From: a virus | IMG/VR virus record: IMGVR_UViG_3300043788_000060 | Location: 1-64,000 of that record | Strand: one strand, 5' to 3' | DNA: 64,000 nucleotides | In this document: piece by piece, positions 19,870 to 55,179 of the stretch | Numbering within the stretch: the stretch's first letter is position 1 | Layout of the letters: each line of letters opens with the position of its first letter | The notes under the pieces: generated by a model | The model's input: the letters and a program-made list of their open reading frames with translations, nothing else | Told to the model about the DNA's origin: nothing | The model's database searches: none | Translations under genes and position numbers: made by a program

Positions 19870-21088
19870 AAATCCTCCATTTCCAACCCATTAGCCAGTC
19901 CATTATTCGGACTGTTGCCCGCTCCCTGCCACGTGGAGGCTGGATTATAGGGAGCACCCGCCGAAGCGGGGTTAGCCGTGAAATTGAATTCCAATGGCGC
20001 GGGGTGGCTGTGTTGGCCCGACAGCGATTTTGTGCCCCGGCAATCCGATTGTCAAAAGCAGCATCAGAAATGCGAACATATTCCTCCTATTCTGTCCAGC
20101 TTACGGACCACTCAAACAAGCCTTCTTTCATTATACCACGTTTGTCGTACTCGGCTTCGATAATTTTCGAGTGCAGCCGCGCCGTGCGGTTTTTGCGGGC
20201 AAGCAATCCATCGATAAAATCAAGTGCCGCAGCGCATGAGTCGTCGAATGACTTGGTGCGGGTCATATTTTCCCGCCCGAAGGCCCGTTGGTTCCGGCAA
20301 TGTATCCGAGCCAGCGTTCGCTATTGAATTGCGGATTCGCCTTCGCGCAAACTTGCCGGATCGTCCCCACGTCCTGCGCCCACTGCTTTGTGCGTACAGC
20401 ATCAAACATAGGGCGGGATTCGTTGAGCGCATCGGCCAGCGCGATAAAATCCTTTTTTGACATTGACATCGTTGTGTCTCCGTTCTCCTGAATTTAGGCA
20501 ATCAGTAACCGCTCAACCCCACCGCGTGAAGGTTTGCCTATTGGGGTCAACGGGAAGCCATTACCACTCGGTACCAGAGTAATGAACGTTTTCTGCGAGG
20601 CATACTCGCGCATCCCGCGTCCTTTGGTTCCCCGGAATCCGTCGATTCGGGTACTAATAGCGCCACCACGTAAAGGTGAGGACTCAGCGCCAACCGGATA
20701 ACGCGCCGGTATCGCGGTTTGTCCATTATTCGGACGGATAGATTCGGTTCCCGATGCGCTCGCCCCACATCGGCAGCGTGAAGGCCACGCCGTACTGCCC
20801 GGGCCTGTCCAGATTGTGAGTTGCCCGATAGACTAGCACGGAGCTACGGGTTTGATCGGCTATTTTCCGCGCCTCAGTCTGTGCCTGTCTCAACGTCATC
20901 TTCGGTTTCCTCCTCTTCTGGCTCGGCTTCGTGGCTAAACTGCATTCCGCAATTCCGGCATTGAACGTGAACGCGGTTTCCAAGCTGGCCTAACAGCATC
21001 AGCGGGCCGTCGCACAGATCGCAGGTTTCCATTTCCGCTCCTCTCAATTGTATTAACCCTACACCTGTTTTAAAAGGTTGTCAAGGGG

Positions 21089-21337
21089 CTAAACATAAAT
21101 CGGTTGCGCCGTGAAGTCAAGGATCAACACTGATTCCTGACGGTTCGCGGCTTTGATGTCAGTGGCAATCGAGATAACCGTGGCCTTAGACGTGGCTACT
21201 AGGTCAATCGCCAGACTTGCTTCGCGTGTGCCCTTCCACGATCCGATTATGGGCATCACGCTGTAGCTGTCAACGTGCGCGTCCAAGATGGACAGAATAG
21301 CTTCGCGGTTCTTGTCCTCTGTGAGTATGCGGTACAT
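21089..21337 (-). CDS. Hypothetical phage protein
   Basis: G.WKG..E.S...IK..NRQESVL pattern; RBS GAGG. Confidence 0.65.
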   Translation of the reverse strand: MYRILTEDKNREAILSILDAHVDSYSVMPIIGSWKGTREASLAIDLVATSKATVISIATDIKAANRQESVLILDFTAQPIYV

Positions 21338-22516
21338 GGTTTACCTCAATGCAGGGGTTGTGACCTGCTTCCCGCATTAACCCGGATTGCTCCGGGCCAC
21401 TCTGCGTTACAGGTTGTCGTGGACGTTGCTAATCAGCCTTGCAGCCAACCCCAATGCTTCCTCATTGGACAGAAAGAAAAACACCTTTGCCGCGCCCGGT
21501 GCCTGATCTAAACCGGGAGTAAACAGAATCTTGCCCTCATAGCGGCCTACGGTGCCTAGCGTGTCGATGCTGGCCGTCTGCCGTGTCTCTTCGCCCGTGC
21601 GCCCCACTATCACGATTTTCGCCATAAATCCTCCTAGCCTGTCTCTTCAGTGCCGGTAGGCTAATCCCGGCAGACCGTCCGAAAAATGGACGGTTTCGAC
21701 TTATGCGCTCCTGTGCGGGCGGCGCGAGTAGACGTTGGCGGGCTCCGACTCGGGTTGCAATACCGCTTTCGCTTTTCGGTAGGTAATCACAATATCCGGC
21801 CAATCCCGCGCGGTTTGTAGAACCCCCACAGCCTCGACATCGCTCACAAATTCTCGAAGTACCTCAATCGCGGATTTTTCCATCCTATCCCCCTATCTCT
21901 TGAAGTTGATTGCGGTTAAACCCAATACCAGCACGCCGAATACCGCGAGAATCAGGTACGGGGCAATGGTTGCGATGTGCTGGCCATATGCGCCAATCAT
22001 TTTGACTCCAGAACTTCGAGCAGCAAAACATCGTGCCCGGAGCCTGATGCCTTGTCGTAGAATTCCTGCGCTGATTCGCGGCTGAGAAAACCGTGGACTC
22101 CCGGTTCGTATTCATCATCCACGACCACGACAAACTTTACCTTTGCCTTTTCAACGATCACGTTTCTCCTTTCCGCGCTCTCGCCATCGGATTAAATCCC
22201 GACTGTGCGCCGTTACTGTATGCGGCCTAACGATGGCCGCGCCGTTCGGTCTAGTTCGCTGCCCAATATCCGGCAACCATCCACTCTGCCGCTCTCTCCA
22301 GATACACTTCCCGAATCGGATGGCCCGGATGAAAAGCAGACAACCCGAGATTCTGTGCAACCTGATTCCTAACTGCCTTGCGAGTCATAACCTGCGCCAT
22401 TTCATAGACTGTCATTGATCCCCTTTCCCGATTCTCGCCAGCATGTATCCCATGCCTGAATCGCTTTCCTGTATGCCAGCTAACCGGATGCTGGCCCGGA
22501 TTGTCCGAATAATGGA

Positions 22517-22723
22517 CTAAATCACCGAGGGAAGTAGGTCAAACTCAAACCCATCATCGATAGCAAGCTGAATCGCTGCATCTATCGAATCCGCGTCATC
22601 GTCCCATATCACCTTACCCGTTTTCAAATAGGTGATTACGAAGTGGGTTGGATCGTTCTCCTCTTGGTAAAAGCCAAACTCCGGCTCGACCGTCGAAGCG
22701 TAGACCTTGGCAATCAATTTCAT
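22517..22723 (-). CDS. Hypothetical protein, first gene of the leftward arm
   Basis: RBS AGGAGG. Confidence 0.6.
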   Translation of the reverse strand: MKLIAKVYASTVEPEFGFYQEENDPTHFVITYLKTGKVIWDDDADSIDAAIQLAIDDGFEFDLLPSVI

Positions 22724-27337: not shown

Positions 27338-27399
27338 CGCACAAAACAAAAATCTGTGGTATAATGTAATTGTCTGCTGAAAAGAGACAAGGAGAAGTG

Positions 27400-28752
27400 A
27401 TGAGAACCAACACAAAGGCAACGGTGGTTTTGCCCCGTACCCACGAGGGGGCGGTTGCGGCAAGACTTAACAATTCGCAGAAGCTCCGTCGTCTGGTCAT
27501 GGCCTCGATGTTGTGGGAAGATCAGTTCTATATCGACGGGGTCTCGCACGCAGAGTATGTAAAGCAGGCTTTACTCGAAGCGTCTCCGGAAGAGGTTGCA
27601 CAAATTGCAATCGAAGCCAGAGAACAGATGAAGCTGCGACACATCCCCTTGTTCTTGGTTCGGGAACTGGCCCGCCACCCCGACAAGAAAGCACGGACTT
27701 TGGTTTCGGATACTCTTACCAGAGTGATCCAGAGACCGGATGAACTCACTGAGTTCCTAAGCATTTATTGGCTCGACGGGAAGCAACCACTTTCAGCGCA
27801 AGTCAAGAAGGGCTTGGCTGGAGCTTTCTCAAAGTTCAACGAGTACGAACTGGCAAAATGGCAGAAGGCGGACGCCGCAGTGAAGCTGCGCGACGTTCTG
27901 TTCCTGACCCACGCCCGTCCGGAAAATGGACAGGAAGAACTGTTCAAGAAGATCGTCGATCAGACTTTGGTAACTCCGGATACGTGGGAAGTCGCTCTGT
28001 CTGCCGGATCGGACAAAAAGGAAACTTGGGTCCGTTTGCTTTCAGAGAACAAGCTGGGGGCGCTCGCCCTCCTCCGTAACTTGCGGAACATGCAGCAGGT
28101 TGGGGTTTCTGATGACCTGATCCGTGATGGCCTCAAGAAAATGAAGGTCGAACGGGTACTTCCGTTCCGGTTCATTTCGGCAGCTAAGTATGCTCCTTCC
28201 CTCGAACCTCAGTTGGAAGAGGCGATGTTCAAGTGTCTGGCTGACGCACCAAAGCTAACCGGCAAAACTGTTCTGTGTGTGGATACCTCTGGTTCCATGC
28301 AGAGCACAGTATCCGGAAAGTCTGAAATCAGCAGACAGGAAGCGGCGACCGCTTTGGCGATCCTGCTTCGTGAAATCTGCGAAGATGTTCAGATCATAGC
28401 TTTTGGATCGACCGCCGGTTTCGTTCGTCCTCGCAGAGGATTTGCGCTGAAGGATGAGATCGGAAACGGACGGTTCGGCCACGGAACCGACACGCAGGCA
28501 GCAATCTTGCTTGCGGCAAGCAAGGGATATGACCGAATCATTGTGTTGACCGACGAACAATCAGCAACCAATGTCGGCAATCCTTTAGTTGGAACCAAAG
28601 GCTACATGCTCAACGTTGCTGCTTACCAAAACGGCGTAGGCGGAACCGGCTGGACAAGAGTTGACGGATGGTCAGAAGCTGTGGTAGACTACATCCGTGA
28701 AGTTGAAAGACAGGCGGGGGTAGAAGCTCCCGCAGAACTTGAATATGCTTGA
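27400..28752 (+). CDS. Ro60/TROVE-domain RNA-binding protein (Rsr-like) with a VWA domain
   Basis: THEGA, WEDQFY, QRPDELTEFL, KLRDVLFLTH, TWEVALS, ALLRNLRNM, VLPFRF, MIDAS DTSGSM, VLTDEQ; promoter at 27355-27365. Confidence 0.93.
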   Translation: MRTNTKATVVLPRTHEGAVAARLNNSQKLRRLVMASMLWEDQFYIDGVSHAEYVKQALLEASPEEVAQIAIEAREQMKLRHIPLFLVRELARHPDKKARTLVSDTLTRVIQRPDELTEFLSIYWLDGKQPLSAQVKKGLAGAFSKFNEYELAKWQKADAAVKLRDVLFLTHARPENGQEELFKKIVDQTLVTPDTWEVALSAGSDKKETWVRLLSENKLGALALLRNLRNMQQVGVSDDLIRDGLKKMKVERVLPFRFISAAKYAPSLEPQLEEAMFKCLADAPKLTGKTVLCVDTSGSMQSTVSGKSEISRQEAATALAILLREICEDVQIIAFGSTAGFVRPRRGFALKDEIGNGRFGHGTDTQAAILLAASKGYDRIIVLTDEQSATNVGNPLVGTKGYMLNVAAYQNGVGGTGWTRVDGWSEAVVDYIREVERQAGVEAPAELEYA

Positions 28753-31851: not shown

Positions 31852-32197
31852 TTTTAGTAAGAAATTTGTCACACTTTTCTGACAAGTTGTGGTATAATGT
31901 ATTTGTTGGTAGGTAACAGGTATGGTGAGGAGAAAAACCCCTAACCCTGAGCCGAACTTGAAGGACGCTTCGAGATGCCACCAAAATCGGTGCTGAGTTC
32001 CGAAACGGACTCAGATGAGGGACCCAGTATTCAGGTTTGAGGGAAGATACCACCGAAACAAGCTTATGACCCACTATGTTTGTCCAATGTGCGAGAAACC
32101 CGACGGCAAAGAGTACGACGATTTCTTGTCGATTAGCAGCAGAAAAGGAATTTTGAGGTTCTGCGAATTTTGCAAACATACGTGGAGAGAAAAGTTT

Positions 32198-32272
32198 GCC
32201 TCGTAAGCATTGGTGCTGATGCACCGGTCCTGTAAACCGGACAACTCAGTTGAACTCTGAGACGGGGCTCCA
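32198..32272 (+). tRNA. tRNA-Thr(TGT)
   Basis: CCGGT-CCTGTAA-ACCGG. Confidence 0.75.
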
Positions 32273-32359
32273 TACAAGCATCTTGTGACACCTACTCCAG
32301 ATGCGCCTAACTAGGAAGGCTAAGTGGTGTGACTCCCGGGAGAGTACGGACAAATTTAT

Positions 32360-34668: not shown

Positions 34669-34746
34669 GCGGCCATAGCCAAGTCTGCTAAGGCAATAGT
34701 CTTCCAAACTATCATCACGCGGGTTGGAATCCCGCTGGCCGCTCCA
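34669..34746 (+). tRNA. tRNA-Gly(TCC)
   Basis: ATAGT-CTTCCAA-ACTAT; TCCA end. Confidence 0.85.
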
Positions 34747-46670: not shown

Positions 46671-47730
46671 GAATAAACCTGCGGTTCTAAAATTCGCCCA
46701 AATCCGTCAATACCTGTTTGCAGAAGCCGCCTAGTGTGGTATAATGTGAATAGACAAGACGGAGGAAAATTCTTGCGAAGCGACATCCATCCCAAGCGTT
46801 GGGCTTTCATAGCCGGTCTAATTGACGGTGATGGAAGTTTCAGTATCCGATATGACAAAGAGTCCGGATATCAATTAACTGTTAACATATATTCGACATC
46901 GAGAAATCTGATGAACTGGTTGGTCAAGCTGATTGGTGGCCAGTATCGAAAGATGCCTACGAAGGGCAATCGTAAACAGCGGTATGCTTGGTATTCAGGG
47001 AATTCAGAAATTCCCACCAATGTTGCTCCGTATCTCATTCTCAAGAAAAGTCAGGCAGAGTCTTCCGTTCTATTCTTTAATCTTGGCTCAGAGAGAAATC
47101 CTCAAGCTAGAGAAGAATTGATGAGAGACATTCAAAATGCTAATGACTTTTATGTACCAGCCAATAAAAAAGATGTACAGGATAGTCGAAAAAATCCGAT
47201 AGAACCCACCAAACTGGATTGGGCCTATCTCTCCGGATTGTTTGATGCTGAGGGGTCTTTCGGCCTCCAAAGGCGCAGCAAAAAGGGCAACGGTTCCTAT
47301 ACATCTTACGCACGAATTTCAAACACAGATAATCGGGTATTCTTGTGGATCGCGCCCCGCTTCGGCGGTCGGTTTTCGGTTACTACCAAGGAACACGATA
47401 AAGATGAAGGCGCATGGACGTTGTCCGGCTCCATCGGTTTAGAAGGAAGAAAAGATCGAGAGAACAAACTCTTGGCTTTGGTTCCTTATCTGGTTGCTAA
47501 GAAAGAACGTGCGGTGCTCTTTATGGAGTGGATTAGAAATAACCACCTATTGACCAAAGAGCAAAAATTGGATTATTTTCTGAGAATGAAGGCGTTGAAC
47601 AAACGCGGAATCTCTCTAGAGACTAATACGGCGAACTGTCCAGAAAATGGACAGATGATAGAGTCCGATCCTGATAGCGATATCAGGTGCGACCCAGCAG
47701 TGATGTTGGAGTCCTAAAACACAAATAAGG
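46671..47730 (+). mobile_element. Group I intron 1 with LAGLIDADG ORF (3' end at 47727 or 47730)
   Basis: P1 GGAACCGU/GCGGUUCU with U-G at the splice site; core GAGACTAATACGGCGAA...GATAGAGTCC. Confidence 0.8.
46773..47717 (+). CDS. Double-motif LAGLIDADG homing endonuclease
   Basis: WAFIAGLIDGDGSF and WAYLSGLFDAEGSF; TTG start after GGAGG; own promoter at 46735-46745. Confidence 0.9.
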   Translation: MRSDIHPKRWAFIAGLIDGDGSFSIRYDKESGYQLTVNIYSTSRNLMNWLVKLIGGQYRKMPTKGNRKQRYAWYSGNSEIPTNVAPYLILKKSQAESSVLFFNLGSERNPQAREELMRDIQNANDFYVPANKKDVQDSRKNPIEPTKLDWAYLSGLFDAEGSFGLQRRSKKGNGSYTSYARISNTDNRVFLWIAPRFGGRFSVTTKEHDKDEGAWTLSGSIGLEGRKDRENKLLALVPYLVAKKERAVLFMEWIRNNHLLTKEQKLDYFLRMKALNKRGISLETNTANCPENGQMIESDPDSDIRCDPAVMLES

Positions 47731-48334
47731 AAGCCCGATCTCCGAATCGAGCACCAAGATCGTTGCTACCATCGGGCAGTATGCCGATTTTATCAACAGT
47801 TCTGACTTGGCTCTCGACGTAGCAATCGACGATCCGGGTTTGCTCCAGAATCTGGCAAACGAACTCAACTACCGGCTTGCTCTTACCCTCAACTCTCTTG
47901 TCCAGATCACAGCGGACTCGGCAGTTGCGGTGGACTCGCTGGTCAACACACAACTGGCCAACGGCTCGTATCTGACGGCGAACAACCTTCGTTCGGCAGT
48001 TCAGTCGCTGGTATCGGTCAACGCACGGCCTCTCGTAAATAACTCCTACGGTGGAATCATTCACCCGAACGTGGTACGAGACATCCTCAACGACACGTCT
48101 TTCAATGGTCTAACCGACATTGTAAAGCGCGATCCTGAGATGGCGAAGATGCTGTACGAACTCCCGAAGAATGATGATGTTATCAAGTTCGCCGGGGTCA
48201 CGTTCAAGCAAACAAGCACTGCGCCGACGGTGACCATCAGTTCGAACACGTATTACAACACTTACATCTTCGGGGACGACGCGATTTTCAGCGTCTTCTT
48301 GGGCAAGAATCCCGAGGATGGATCGAAGAACTAT
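47731..48334 (+). CDS. Major capsid protein, exon 2
   Basis: SPISESSTKIVATIGQYADFINSSDLALDVAIDDP...GIIHPNVVRDI...TYIFGDDA...GSKNY. Confidence 0.8.
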
Positions 48335-48552
48335 TTGCAAAAAGTAGCTTGAGCGGGCAACTGCTCTCGAACAGACCGTAAATTCGGTGGAACCCTCACA
48401 GAGGCAATACCGAGCCAAGTCGCGAAAGCGGAAGGTGTAGAGACTAGAGACGGTCCTCCCTATGGGATGATAGTATAGTCCGGACTGCACAGCGATGTGC
48501 AGAGGCAAACAGAAATGATTTGCCCGTCCGAATAATGGACAGTAACAAAACG
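48335..48552 (+). mobile_element. Group I intron 2 (218 nt, no ORF)
   Basis: P1 CUAU/GUAG; AATTCGGTGGAA, AATACCGAGCCAAG, GTAGAGACTA, ATAGTCC; terminal G; removal restores the frame. Confidence 0.85.
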
Positions 48553-48606
48553 AAACTCTTCATCCAGAGTGCGCCTGAGCAGGGAAGTGTAAGTGATCCA
48601 GCACGT
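48553..48606 (+). CDS. Major capsid protein, exon 3 (54 nt)
   Basis: KLFIQSAPEQGSVSDPAR. Confidence 0.8.
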
Positions 48607-48828
48607 CAACTTTAGGCGTCACTAAGGCGAAATCCTTAGAAGAAAATTCTATCTAATTGACTTGGAAGCTGAGAAGCCAACAAGGCGGAACCCAGAAATC
48701 GGGACCGTGAGAGACTAAACGATAGAACACCCTTTGGGGTGATGCGATAGTCCGGCCTCATACGAAATGAAGTATGAGAGGTGTGCAGAAATGACGCACC
48801 CCGTCCATTTTAGACGAGTAACATTCCG
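48607..48828 (+). mobile_element. Group I intron 3 (222 nt, no ORF)
   Basis: P1 ACGU/GCGU; AATTGACTTGGAA, AACAAGGCGGAA, GAGAGACTAAACG, GATAGTCC; terminal G. Confidence 0.85.
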
Positions 48829-51251: not shown

Positions 51252-52196
51252 ATGATGTACACGCAGGGATACATAGCATCTTTGAAGGTCGGAGGTAAAA
51301 TCCTCCGGGAATCAAACGGAACAGTTTCGCTCCCATTTGGGTCTGAATATTCCGTGCTCCTCAAAAACAAACTCTCCCGTCGGGCTCAAGTCAAAGTCGA
51401 AGTAGACGGCCAAGACGCGACCGAGGGAACCAAGCTGATCCTGCCCGCAAACGGATCGCTGGAGCTAGAACGCTTTATCAAGTCTGGCAACCTAAAAGCG
51501 GGCAACAAGTTCAAGTTTATCGAACGGACTTCGAAGATCGAAGAACACCGGGGAATCAAAGAAGACGACGGCTTGATCCGAATCGAATTCTGGGCTGAGA
51601 AAGAAGTCGTAGATGTACCGGTTGTCCGGCATCATTATTACGATGATTGGGTTCCAGTCCGCAGATATTACTGGGATCGCCCGTGGTATGATCCGTACTA
51701 CCCGACATGGCCTCAACCGACGATTACTTGGAATTCCAATTCCGGTATCCAAACTTCCTGCTATAATACAAGCGGAAGTTTAGGAGAGGCACAAAGCGAT
51801 AATCTGGGCTCGGCGCAAAATTTTTCTGGCAGTTTGCAAAAATCTTCTGCGAGACAGACCAGAAGTCTACACCCGCAAGCGTCTAGCGGCATCACTCGCG
51901 ATTCAGGTCAGCAAGTTCATGCTCAGAACTGCATGATGGCGGAAACCAGTTTCAACGACGCAGGAATCACGGTCCCGGGAAGTCACTCAAACCAAGAGTT
52001 CCAAAGCACTTACGGGTTTGAAACCGAATCGAACAGTCACGTGATTGTACTTCAGTTGCGGGGTGTGGTTGGGGACAAACCAGTCGTAGTTCCGGTTACC
52101 GTAGACCACAAGCCGGTCTGCCCAACCTGCGGAACTACAAACAAGGCGCAAAATAAATTCTGCAAAGAATGCGGAACGGCCTTGCAATTAGTCTAA
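51252..52196 (+). CDS. Hypothetical protein with C-terminal zinc ribbon
   Basis: RBS AAGGAG; CPTCG...FCKECG. Confidence 0.75.
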   Translation: MMYTQGYIASLKVGGKILRESNGTVSLPFGSEYSVLLKNKLSRRAQVKVEVDGQDATEGTKLILPANGSLELERFIKSGNLKAGNKFKFIERTSKIEEHRGIKEDDGLIRIEFWAEKEVVDVPVVRHHYYDDWVPVRRYYWDRPWYDPYYPTWPQPTITWNSNSGIQTSCYNTSGSLGEAQSDNLGSAQNFSGSLQKSSARQTRSLHPQASSGITRDSGQQVHAQNCMMAETSFNDAGITVPGSHSNQEFQSTYGFETESNSHVIVLQLRGVVGDKPVVVPVTVDHKPVCPTCGTTNKAQNKFCKECGTALQLV

Positions 52197-52216
52197 AGTG
52201 TGGTATAATGTATTTG

Positions 52217-53005
52217 TTAGGTAGCGGGTTTCACCGGCCAAGGCGGAGTCTTTAAGCGAGAACAAAAACGGGAATGACTCTAACCGGTAGAGTGACCTTG
52301 GTTTGCAGATAGCAACATAACCGCCCAGAGCGTGATTATGCTGCCTATAAATTTCGAGTTTGCGTAAATCGAGGGATGCTGGCTACTGAGGAGCGAAGGT
52401 AGCTGGATCGGGAACTTCCCAAACCACCCCGATCTTTGCCCTCCTTGCTCAGAAATGACGATTTACGCAATGAAGGTGAGGGCCACGGTTGGTCATACGT
52501 CCAAACTGTTGGGTAGGTACTGGATGGGACAGCCTCCAACAGCCCGTGGCCTGATTCCCAAAGGACAACATGATTGATTCAGAGTTTGGTTGGTGGCGTA
52601 GTTGGATTAGTGAGCTTCTTTCCTAGATCGATCTGGGAAAGATGAACCAGAGGTAGTTTCAGTTCAGCCCTCTCACCCCCGGAAGTCATGAGCCGGACTC
52701 GGGTGCTTATTAGAACTGAAGCGGGGATGGGGCTCGGGTTTGGCCTCAACGCATACCCACGGGGTTCATTACCCAACAGGCCCAACATTTTAGGTTTGAC
52801 CCTCTTCGGAGGAGAACAGCAACAAGCGGAACTTTAGTTCACACAAACTTGAGTTTTGACGCATCCCCCTCGCCCGGTACCTGCTTGTTTGGGGTGGCCC
52901 CTGAATTCCTAGGAATTCAGTAATCCGGTGGTCAAATGGTGGTGACACCTACCAGCCTGTGTGGGCAAAGTGGTGTGACTCTAGCATTCTCAGAGTAGAA
53001 GCTTA
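52217..53005 (+). ncRNA. Large structured ncRNA candidate (about 790 nt)
   Basis: Promoter at 52199-52209, no plus-strand ORF of 60 aa or more, many long helices. Confidence 0.65.
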
Positions 53006-53038
53006 ATTTCGTCCAGATAATGGACTAGGGAGAAAACG

Positions 53039-53194
53039 ATGGCACCAAAGCATCCGGGGTTCAAAGCAGTTCAATCGAAGATCGCAGGAGAAGGCTATAG
53101 CAAGAAAGCAGCCGGAGCGATCCTCGCAAACGCGACACGAAATGCCAGCAAGTCTGCGAAGGCAAAGAACCCCAAACTCCGCAAAGTCAAGTAG
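53039..53194 (+). CDS. Small basic phage protein (MAPKHPGFKAVQ...)
   Basis: Hand-translated 51 aa; RBS GGGAG. Confidence 0.65.
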   Translation: MAPKHPGFKAVQSKIAGEGYSKKAAGAILANATRNASKSAKAKNPKLRKVK

Positions 53195-53422
53195 ATGGAA
53201 GAATCTCTTCAAATCCACCACAGCGAGCAGATTCACTGGGCTTCCTACGATCCGGACACCCAGCAATTGAACCTGACGCTCAACGACCGGAGAAAGCACG
53301 GGTATTCGCCGGTCCCCCAAAAGGTGGTTAACGGATTTGTCCGCGCTAAATCCCACGGGGATTTTTTCCACAAGAACATCAGAAACAACCCGAATTACCG
53401 ATACCACGGAAAGGTAGAATGA
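53195..53422 (+). CDS. KTSC-domain protein
   Basis: S.QI...SYDPDTQQL...Y..VP......F..A.SHG.FF..NIR. Confidence 0.8.
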   Translation: MEESLQIHHSEQIHWASYDPDTQQLNLTLNDRRKHGYSPVPQKVVNGFVRAKSHGDFFHKNIRNNPNYRYHGKVE

Positions 53423-54521: not shown

Positions 54522-55179
54522 CCATGCGCCGTCTACTGTTTGACCTTTCGCTTCCGTTCGTTATCTGTTGGGGATTACTTATCTGGTTTATCGCCAACTG
54601 CGGAAATGGGGGCGATTGGCAAACATGGATGGAAGACCATCTTTCGTAGTTTGCGCGGGGAGCCTAAATACACCGGCCAAGACTCTGAGAGGGCCGGACG
54701 CGCAAAGTTTTAATGTCCGAATAATGGACAGCAGGTTGCCTTTCACAGAGGAGTCGAACCGCTGGTTTACTAGCCCTAATCTGGCGGCAAGGTTACTTTA
54801 ACAGGTTGTTCCAAGGAGCAGGACTCGCCGCAGACGATCTCTACGGAGGAGCAGTTTCTGAAGCGCAACCGGGCAACGTCATCGTAATATCCGAAACGAA
54901 TCGCGACCTGCCCTTTTTACTTCCATGCCAAATCATATCAAAAATCTCGGTATATGTGCTCTTTGCAGACAAGAGGTATTGTCAGTAATGGACCTAAAGG
55001 AGCATGTCATGGGAGATGTTAATAAAAATGGTTTGATTGGCTGGTCCGAAGGGAAAGATTTATCTCCTCTTTGAAAGCAACTTTGGTGCAGCAAATGTAT
55101 TGCTCGCATCCACCCACGGATATGTATCTGTCCACATTGCAAAGCCGCCAAACTATCCGAATAATGGACTAAGGAACTC

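Follow-up and report, generated by a model that had tools for sequence, protein, structure and literature searches.

The roughly 840 bases between two neighboring genes of a phage genome, which an earlier note had taken for a large, ornate RNA of about 790 nt resembling the GOLLD and ROOL classes, are probably a non-coding, promoter-driven mosaic leader that carries one conserved small RNA. The conserved part, denoted D1 (positions 52218-52347, plus strand), is a closed three-way-junction domain of ~130 nt located directly behind the promoter. On the comparative evidence presented here, D1 is a previously undescribed small structured RNA family represented in six phage lineages, and the only part of the gap under detectable selection. 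The earlier reading of the region as non-coding, promoter-driven, and host to a real structured RNA is thereby retained, and that of one giant RNA is not supported.

All coordinates refer to the window, that is, the 64,000 nucleotides that were analyzed, which comprise the first 64 kb of the 110,256-bp IMG/VR virus record IMGVR_UViG_3300043788_000060, rated complete. The gap (52197-53038) is bounded upstream by gene A (51252-52196, plus strand, from the ORF list), which has more than 2000 homologues and encodes a 314-aa protein of unassigned function with a C-terminal zinc ribbon (residues 289-312 yield weak Pfam zinc-ribbon/DUF7577 matches, all under the curated cut-offs), and downstream by gene S (53039-53194, plus strand), which encodes a 51-aa basic protein and is directly followed by gene K (53195-53422, plus strand), encoding a 75-aa KTSC-domain protein. 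The claim that the gap is non-coding was borne out: the ORF list contains no ORF longer than 69 aa between 52197 and 53038, each of the six frames is interrupted by 9-17 stops of mixed types, and the codon-usage log-odds, computed with the long ORFs of this phage as the training set, are negative in all gap frames and positive in the flanking genes.

The phage is rich in RNA genes, with 31 tRNA genes at 28.7-34.7 kb, the nearest of which is 17 kb distant from the gap, and Rfam matches to twister, hammerhead, and HDV-like ribozymes; several homing endonuclease genes lie near the gap. The ribozyme matches, all on the minus strand and above the Rfam gathering score, are HDV-like (19884-19955), twister-P5 (21352-21406), and hammerhead II (21633-21701), the latter two inside a 2.3-kb stretch (20328-22647) without an ORF of at least 100 aa. 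Ro60, with its TROVE and vWA_Ro60 domains, is encoded at 27400-28752, and its gene is followed by three short Y-like RNAs (28.75-29.08 kb) with common 5' GGTTACTT-type and 3' CGCTTGTTC motifs, and then by the tRNA array. The Ro60 of the related phage L005 is 86% identical to that of the window; G004, a relative that is 97% complete, lacks the gene. Three matches to the group I intron model, all sub-threshold (20.8, 47.6, and 20.5 bits; 47511-48771), directly follow a LAGLIDADG endonuclease ORF (46734-47717), and L005 has two group I matches at the syntenic position.

The promoter scan identified a sigma-70-type promoter, TTGCAA-16-TGTGGTATAAT, on the plus strand at 52182-52209, with the -35 box inside the last codons of gene A. 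It agrees with the sigma-70 consensus at 10 of 12 positions, possesses an extended -10 (TG), and is kept in the related loci L005, L085, L088, and L167, so the strong promoter described earlier stands as a motif. Its position would place the start of transcription near 52216. The -10/+1 block has two exact copies, one within the tRNA array (31888) and one ahead of a GIY-YIG endonuclease gene (48983), and a one-mismatch copy precedes the Ro60 gene at 27355. A simple pattern scan detected no terminator-like site on the plus strand between 51000 and 54000, and hence not the intrinsic terminator at the 3' end that would mark a terminated small-RNA gene; because no such site was seen, transcription probably continues into S and K.

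At its other end, the gap closes, as had been noted, with a copy of a 15-bp repeat, the hairpin motif GTCCAGATAATGGAC (53011-53025, plus strand), which is followed by the ribosome-binding site and start of S. The motif, GTCC[AG][AG]ATAATGGAC, occurs in 64 copies in the 110-kb genome with one mismatch allowed, is oriented with transcription, and often overlaps a stop (TAA) and the next start (ATG). The copy at 53011 encodes a two-codon mini-ORF ahead of the S ribosome-binding site. Copies within the window span 1451-60201, with others in the rest of the genome; one lies inside the HDV-like match (19898-19912) and another inside the hammerhead match, on the opposite strand (21677-21691), and the motif is kept in the relatives L005, L088, L167, and L171. 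A further copy (54715) lies in another stretch of ~410 nt without long ORFs (54522-54932).

D1 consists of a 9-bp closing helix P1 (52218-52226 with 52339-47), a four-pair helix P2 (UCAC/GUGA), a 7-bp helix P3, and an inner hairpin. Two blocks, GCGGGUUUCACCGG and CCGCC-N-AGAGCGUGAUUAUGC, contain P2 and are identical in all six distinct sequences; this invariance is partly by construction because four of the sequences were found via a pattern derived from these blocks. In total, ~35 junction nucleotides are invariant, the peripheral helices vary, and insertions are tolerated; P3 encloses a variable insert ending RAAGC...GAACA. The six distinct sequences, of 114-139 nt, come from uncultured phages and comprise, besides the window, the loci L087/L088, L167, L176 (the locus of G004), L254/L257, and L256/L258. 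The promoter and D1 together, which make up the first ~155 nt of the gap, are 77% identical to the L087/L088 pair. A covariance model built from the window and this pair recovered L167 and L176, and a pattern composed of the two invariant blocks recovered L254/L257 and L256/L258; two pattern scans also produced the chance matches L168 and L169, both of which the covariance model rejected.

In the D1 alignment, 97.2% of the pair cells hold standard pairs and 12 pairs are changed on both sides, figures that pertain to six sequences and to an alignment fitted to the model. None of 500 column shuffles reached any of the main measures, pairing fell to 24-47% when the 3' partners were slid by 1-3 columns, and the covariation was also checked by hand. 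P1, which ranges from 8 to 13 bp, is paired in 100% of its cells and changed on both sides in six of its nine pairs; the corresponding values for P3 are 90% and five of seven. The first helix listed in the earlier note is this same P1 and thus proved real and supported by covariation. The invariant G-U pair in P1 assigns D1 to the plus strand.

D1 is single-copy in each genome searched, with no second D1-like copy within the gap, and is always located between genes in the sense orientation. In the window, it begins 2 nt after the inferred start of transcription, and its place directly behind the promoter is shared by L088 and L167. It is found between genes in L176, L254, and L256, where that promoter was not recognized upstream; the next start codon follows D1 at ~320, 25, and 17 nt, respectively. 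The genes downstream differ between the lineages, and all lineages but L088, five of the six, have an A/U-rich tail after P1. In G004, the intergenic space that holds D1 comes after the third gene of the S-K operon and is syntenically near 54522-54932 of the window. One soil-metagenome Logan contig contains the promoter and D1 at 176 of 180 identical bases, joined to another upstream flank. Searches of the D1 homologues from L088 and L167 against Rfam, of D1 against GenBank phages, and of a D1 19-mer by exact scan of IMG/VR produced no match, and a literature search with the invariant strings retrieved an unrelated plant primer only.

The search for homologues and covariation that had been suggested as a check gave a divided outcome, with 12 compensated pairs in D1 and no homologue for 52350-52930. 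This interior of ~590 nt had no counterpart by blastn, nhmmer, or tblastx in about 250 loci gathered from IMG/VR and JGI metagenomes via genes A, S, and K, is absent from the records of seven related phages, one of them the syntenic relative that is 97% complete, and matches nothing in GenBank phages or the Logan 31-mer index. The nearest relatives in these searches are 68-71% identical in the gene A protein, so that an interior conserved among very close kin only would have escaped.

Folding of the region as a whole was no better than that of shuffled sequence (minimum free energy z -1.28 on the plus strand and -1.50 on the minus strand). All the helices listed previously are present within at most one base of their places, and most are at chance level: 12 perfect inverted repeats of at least 8 bp were observed vs 7.3 +/- 3.0 in 500 dinucleotide shuffles (P = 0.09). 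The longest arm reached at least 12 bp in 2.6% of the shuffles, and among the listed helices the 12-bp pair alone was shown to be rare. As a calibration point, lists of 8-9-bp helices in 800 nt are expected by chance. When seven sub-windows were folded, five behaved as the shuffles did and a single one, 52356-52475, was exceptional (z -4.18, 0 of 200 shuffles).

That sub-window contains D2 (52360-52470), a 111-nt imperfect inverted repeat detected by repeat finding, which forms a long hairpin with a perfect 12-bp closing stem; the pseudoknot proposed earlier is merely the two arms of this hairpin. On the minus strand, the folding stands out just as much (z -4.24, again 0 of 200 shuffles), and D2 is for this reason considered a strand-symmetric inverted repeat. 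No D2 homologue was found, an exact scan of IMG/VR with a D2 24-mer was also empty, and D2 is so far present only in this phage. Downstream of it, an orphan non-coding spacer (52471-52931, plus strand; sub-window z -1.45 to +0.51) includes two 8-bp helices (52481/52544 and 52658/52713) that are at chance level by shuffles, a 26-nt near-palindrome (52617-52642), and a perfect 20-nt palindrome (52901-52920). Neither D2 nor the 26-nt and 20-nt palindromes have copies elsewhere in the genome. The interior is not featureless because D2, and probably the 20-nt palindrome, is rarer than chance, the shuffle test being that of the 12-bp pair.

The last module of the gap, D3 (52932-53010, plus strand), consists of a GUGACACC...GGUGUGAC hairpin and a second small hairpin. 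By nhmmer and blastn, 52932-53027 is homologous to L171:1438-1569 of the L005 phage, a segment that directly follows the homologous tRNA-Thr and ends at the same 15-bp motif. D3 also partly matches 32286-32335 of the window, the spacer between tRNA-Thr and tRNA-His, where the GUGACACC...GGUGUGAC hairpin recurs. Given this homology to tRNA-array spacers, the gap reuses building blocks of the RNA-gene array of the phage. Within that array, the promoter copy at 31888 is followed by a leader of ~155 nt (31888-32066) before a zinc-ribbon mini-ORF of 46 codons (32066-32206), which extends into tRNA-Thr. This leader is kept in the L005 phage (L171:1275-1362) with apparent compensatory changes, has no Rfam match at the gathering threshold, and may be another unnamed structured RNA.

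Comparison of the loci gathered via genes A, S, and K shows the space between A and S to be a mosaic slot. In the closest relatives, the promoter and the 15-bp motif are nearly letter-identical and the sequence between them is wholly different, amounting to 125-470 nt of non-coding sequence; at more distant gene A loci, the next ORF follows after 0-280 nt. L005, whose A, S, and K proteins are 68%, 86%, and 79% identical to those of the window, has ~470 nt in the slot that cannot be aligned to the window and that consist of an element X and ~340 nt; the slot of L085 contains the ~125-nt element X only. The slot holds ~225 nt in L087/L088 (A 71% identical), those of L088 being D1 and ~95 nt; in L167, it contains D1 and ~30 nt. 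In G004 (97% complete, syntenic), it is occupied by the promoter, a 30-codon remnant of the gene A zinc ribbon, and a long hairpin. S and K follow the slot in L005, L088, and L176, a different small basic protein replaces S in L085, and two other small ORFs precede K in L167. Two public sequencing runs, of DNA or unknown type, contain small parts of this sequence, and the homology of their Logan contigs breaks off precisely at positions 52183 and 53005, the borders of the modules; these contigs cover 52183-52362 and 53005-53300 only and, without cover of the interior, are no evidence on it either way.

Several further features were observed in the slots of the relatives. Element X (L005:4940-5057, L085:2684-2812; ~120 nt, about 93% identical) replaces D1 behind the same promoter, shows at least one compensated pair (AGUC/GACU vs GGUC/GACC), and is without an Rfam match; that it might be homologous to D1 was considered and rejected, the alignment being unconvincing. 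Just before the 15-bp motif, L088:1725-1795 and L005:5300-5385 contain small 5-bp hairpins with a common GAAAGA loop and differing stems (CUCAG/CUGAG, GCAG/CUGC, GCCGG/CCGGC) that look like protein-binding hairpins of the boxB type. The zinc-ribbon remnant of G004 (L176:2286-2378) is a stand-alone 30-codon sequence behind the promoter, gene A being otherwise gone at this locus, and thus shows gene loss at the same slot.

The window was searched with cmscan against all 4227 Rfam 15 models at the gathering thresholds and the segment 52000-53300 at E<=10 on both strands. This segment produced zero matches on either strand, which covers the families that had been named for checking: neither GOLLD (RF01998) nor ROOL (RF03087) nor the group I intron (RF00028, P3-P9 core) was detected at E<=10, and the same holds for OLE, HEARO, RNase P, the group II intron, 6S, tmRNA, and the known ribozymes and riboswitches. 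As a positive control, a similar search detects the group I introns of this genome (47.5-48.8 kb) at 20-48 bits, so that weak members of known families probably would have been seen. As far as these models reach, GOLLD, ROOL, OLE, HEARO, RNase P, and group I and II introns are excluded.

Measured against GOLLD and ROOL, the gap is similar in length (theirs are about 800 and 581 nt), is non-coding, and sits in a phage genome carrying tRNA genes. In GOLLD, the 3' half is conserved and contains multi-stem junctions and pseudoknots. [quoted passage not shown] Unlike them, the gap is without a conserved multi-junction body, the first 130 nt alone being conserved; whole-length conservation with covariation is thus not seen, as 52218-52347 alone has homologues. 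Also unlike GOLLD and ROOL, the relatives hold unrelated sequences of 125-470 nt in the same slot, and tRNA adjacency is lacking, since the array ends at 34746 and only the 3' ~90 nt of the gap are spacer-like. A giant RNA of this class would have been notable, and the evidence does not support one. Another parallel is offered by small intergenic structured motifs such as riboswitch aptamers and protein-binding leaders, of which comparative genomics of intergenic regions has uncovered 224 structured examples (PMC5737381). D1 resembles these in its long closing P1 and multi-stem junction, its invariant junction nucleotides, its peripheral helices of variable length with compensatory changes, and its 5'-leader position in three lineages; it differs in having no match among the 4227 Rfam models and in being known from six uncultured phage lineages only.

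Two other comparisons concern phage leaders and Y RNAs. Lambdoid phages possess promoter-proximal leader RNAs, namely the nut boxB hairpins and the put RNAs of HK022. By analogy, D1 may be likened to these as a structured RNA that immediately follows a phage promoter and heads an operon, and the leaders of L088 and L005 carry the small 5-bp GAAAGA-loop hairpins. The comparison is drawn from general knowledge, with no similarity of sequence or model; unlike the lambdoid leaders, D1 also occurs away from promoters (L176, L254, L256), and the window itself, unlike L088 and L005, lacks the GAAAGA-loop hairpins. Like the Y RNAs that partner Ro60, D1 has a terminal helix formed by its 5' and 3' ends that encloses a variable body, and it shares the phage and the promoter type with the Y-like RNA/Ro60 region. 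D1 was nevertheless rejected as a Y RNA: the motifs of the Y-like RNAs at 28.75-29.08 kb are not in the gap, and D1 is not a partner of Ro60 because G004 has D1 without Ro60 and the Ro60-bearing L005 fragment is without D1, so that neither the Ro-binding stem motifs nor co-occurrence with Ro60 link the gap or D1 to this class.

If the whole ~790 nt were one large lineage-specific RNA similar to GOLLD or ROOL, D1 would form the 5' domain, and the remainder would be a body that was acquired recently or evolves fast. The size of the region, its strong promoter and lack of ORFs, the wealth of RNA genes in this phage (31 tRNAs, Ro60, and ribozyme and intron matches), the exceptional folding of D2, and the long non-coding sequence that the relatives, too, keep in the slot are all in keeping with such an RNA. 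Against it, Rfam yields no match at E<=10, the region as a whole and five of its seven sub-windows fold like shuffled sequence, D2 is strand-symmetric, D1 has its own closing helix and stands alone at 115-131 nt in other phages, and the interior is missing from all relatives, including the 97%-complete one. We therefore regard this reading as improbable; it keeps a small probability because the relatives compared are no closer than ~70% protein identity. A similarly low probability attaches to the idea that the interior acts as DNA, either as a regulatory or replication region in which the palindromes are protein sites or form a cruciform, or as the decayed remains of an inserted gene or free-standing homing endonuclease. 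The three strand-symmetric palindromic elements (111, 26, and 20 nt), the homing endonuclease genes nearby, and the behavior of the slot as a recombination hot spot would suit this explanation, but the genome contains no further copies of the palindromes, and none of the six read-through frames retains a protein-domain remnant when compared with Pfam and PHROGs. An interior ORF of 49 aa (52688-52837) gave the sole, marginal PHROG match (E 0.036), had no homologue among 5.8 billion proteins, and was rejected; likewise, an origin of replication at 52-53 kb was rejected, there being no GC-skew turn, no AT-rich stretch, and a GC content of 47-53%, like that of the genome.

D1 might be a stand-alone RNA that acts in trans as a small RNA or, as a self-cleaving ribozyme of a new kind, cuts a polycistronic transcript, in which case the remainder of the gap would be spacer; as a whole, we consider this unlikely, although a trans-acting or ribozyme role for D1 is a serious alternative to a cis-acting one. 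Compactness, variable peripheral helices with tolerated insertions, and long invariant junction blocks agree with a stand-alone RNA, as do the single-copy, intergenic, sense-oriented placement next to unrelated genes, the twister, hammerhead, and HDV-like matches in the same genome, and the A/U-rich tail after P1 in five of six lineages. Conversely, no canonical terminator follows D1, no promoter was recognized upstream of it in L176, L254, and L256, and no known ribozyme model matches it. The variety of genes behind D1 in the different lineages speaks against a classical metabolite riboswitch dedicated to a single pathway, and D1 may instead act in trans or as a catalyst; for the same reason, no ligand or pathway can be inferred for D1.

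Under the favored reading, the mosaic leader with one conserved small RNA, a polymerase of the host type would start near 52216 and the first ~130 nt would fold into D1, an autonomous domain with a 9-bp closing helix and a three-way junction that appears to be a portable single-copy module in six phage lineages. With its closed architecture and long invariant blocks at the junction, D1 fits an aptamer-like element acting in cis, and we infer that it may be a leader domain that binds a ligand or protein and thereby conditions how stable the message of the small-protein operon behind it (S, K, and the genes that follow) is, or how that message is processed or translated. Transcription would then read through ~590 nt of lineage-specific sequence, composed of the long strand-symmetric hairpin, palindromes, and an otherwise unremarkable rest, and would cross the ~90-nt module borrowed from tRNA-array spacers and the 15-bp motif before entering S. 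A bolder proposal, put forward tentatively and unlikely to hold in full, is that D1 is the central part of a riboswitch aptamer or self-cleaving ribozyme of a new class, spread as a portable single-copy module of soil and peat phages, and that the A-S slot is a cassette site at which non-coding RNA modules (D1, element X, and the tRNA-spacer hairpins) are swapped behind one conserved promoter.

The gap offers a clear example of a promoter-bounded intergenic slot in which related phages exchange unrelated non-coding RNA cassettes. Among these, D1 appears as a covariation-supported RNA family of ~130 nt that phages carry as a portable module; with long invariant blocks at its junction, it is a reasonable candidate for tests of ligand binding, protein binding, or catalysis.
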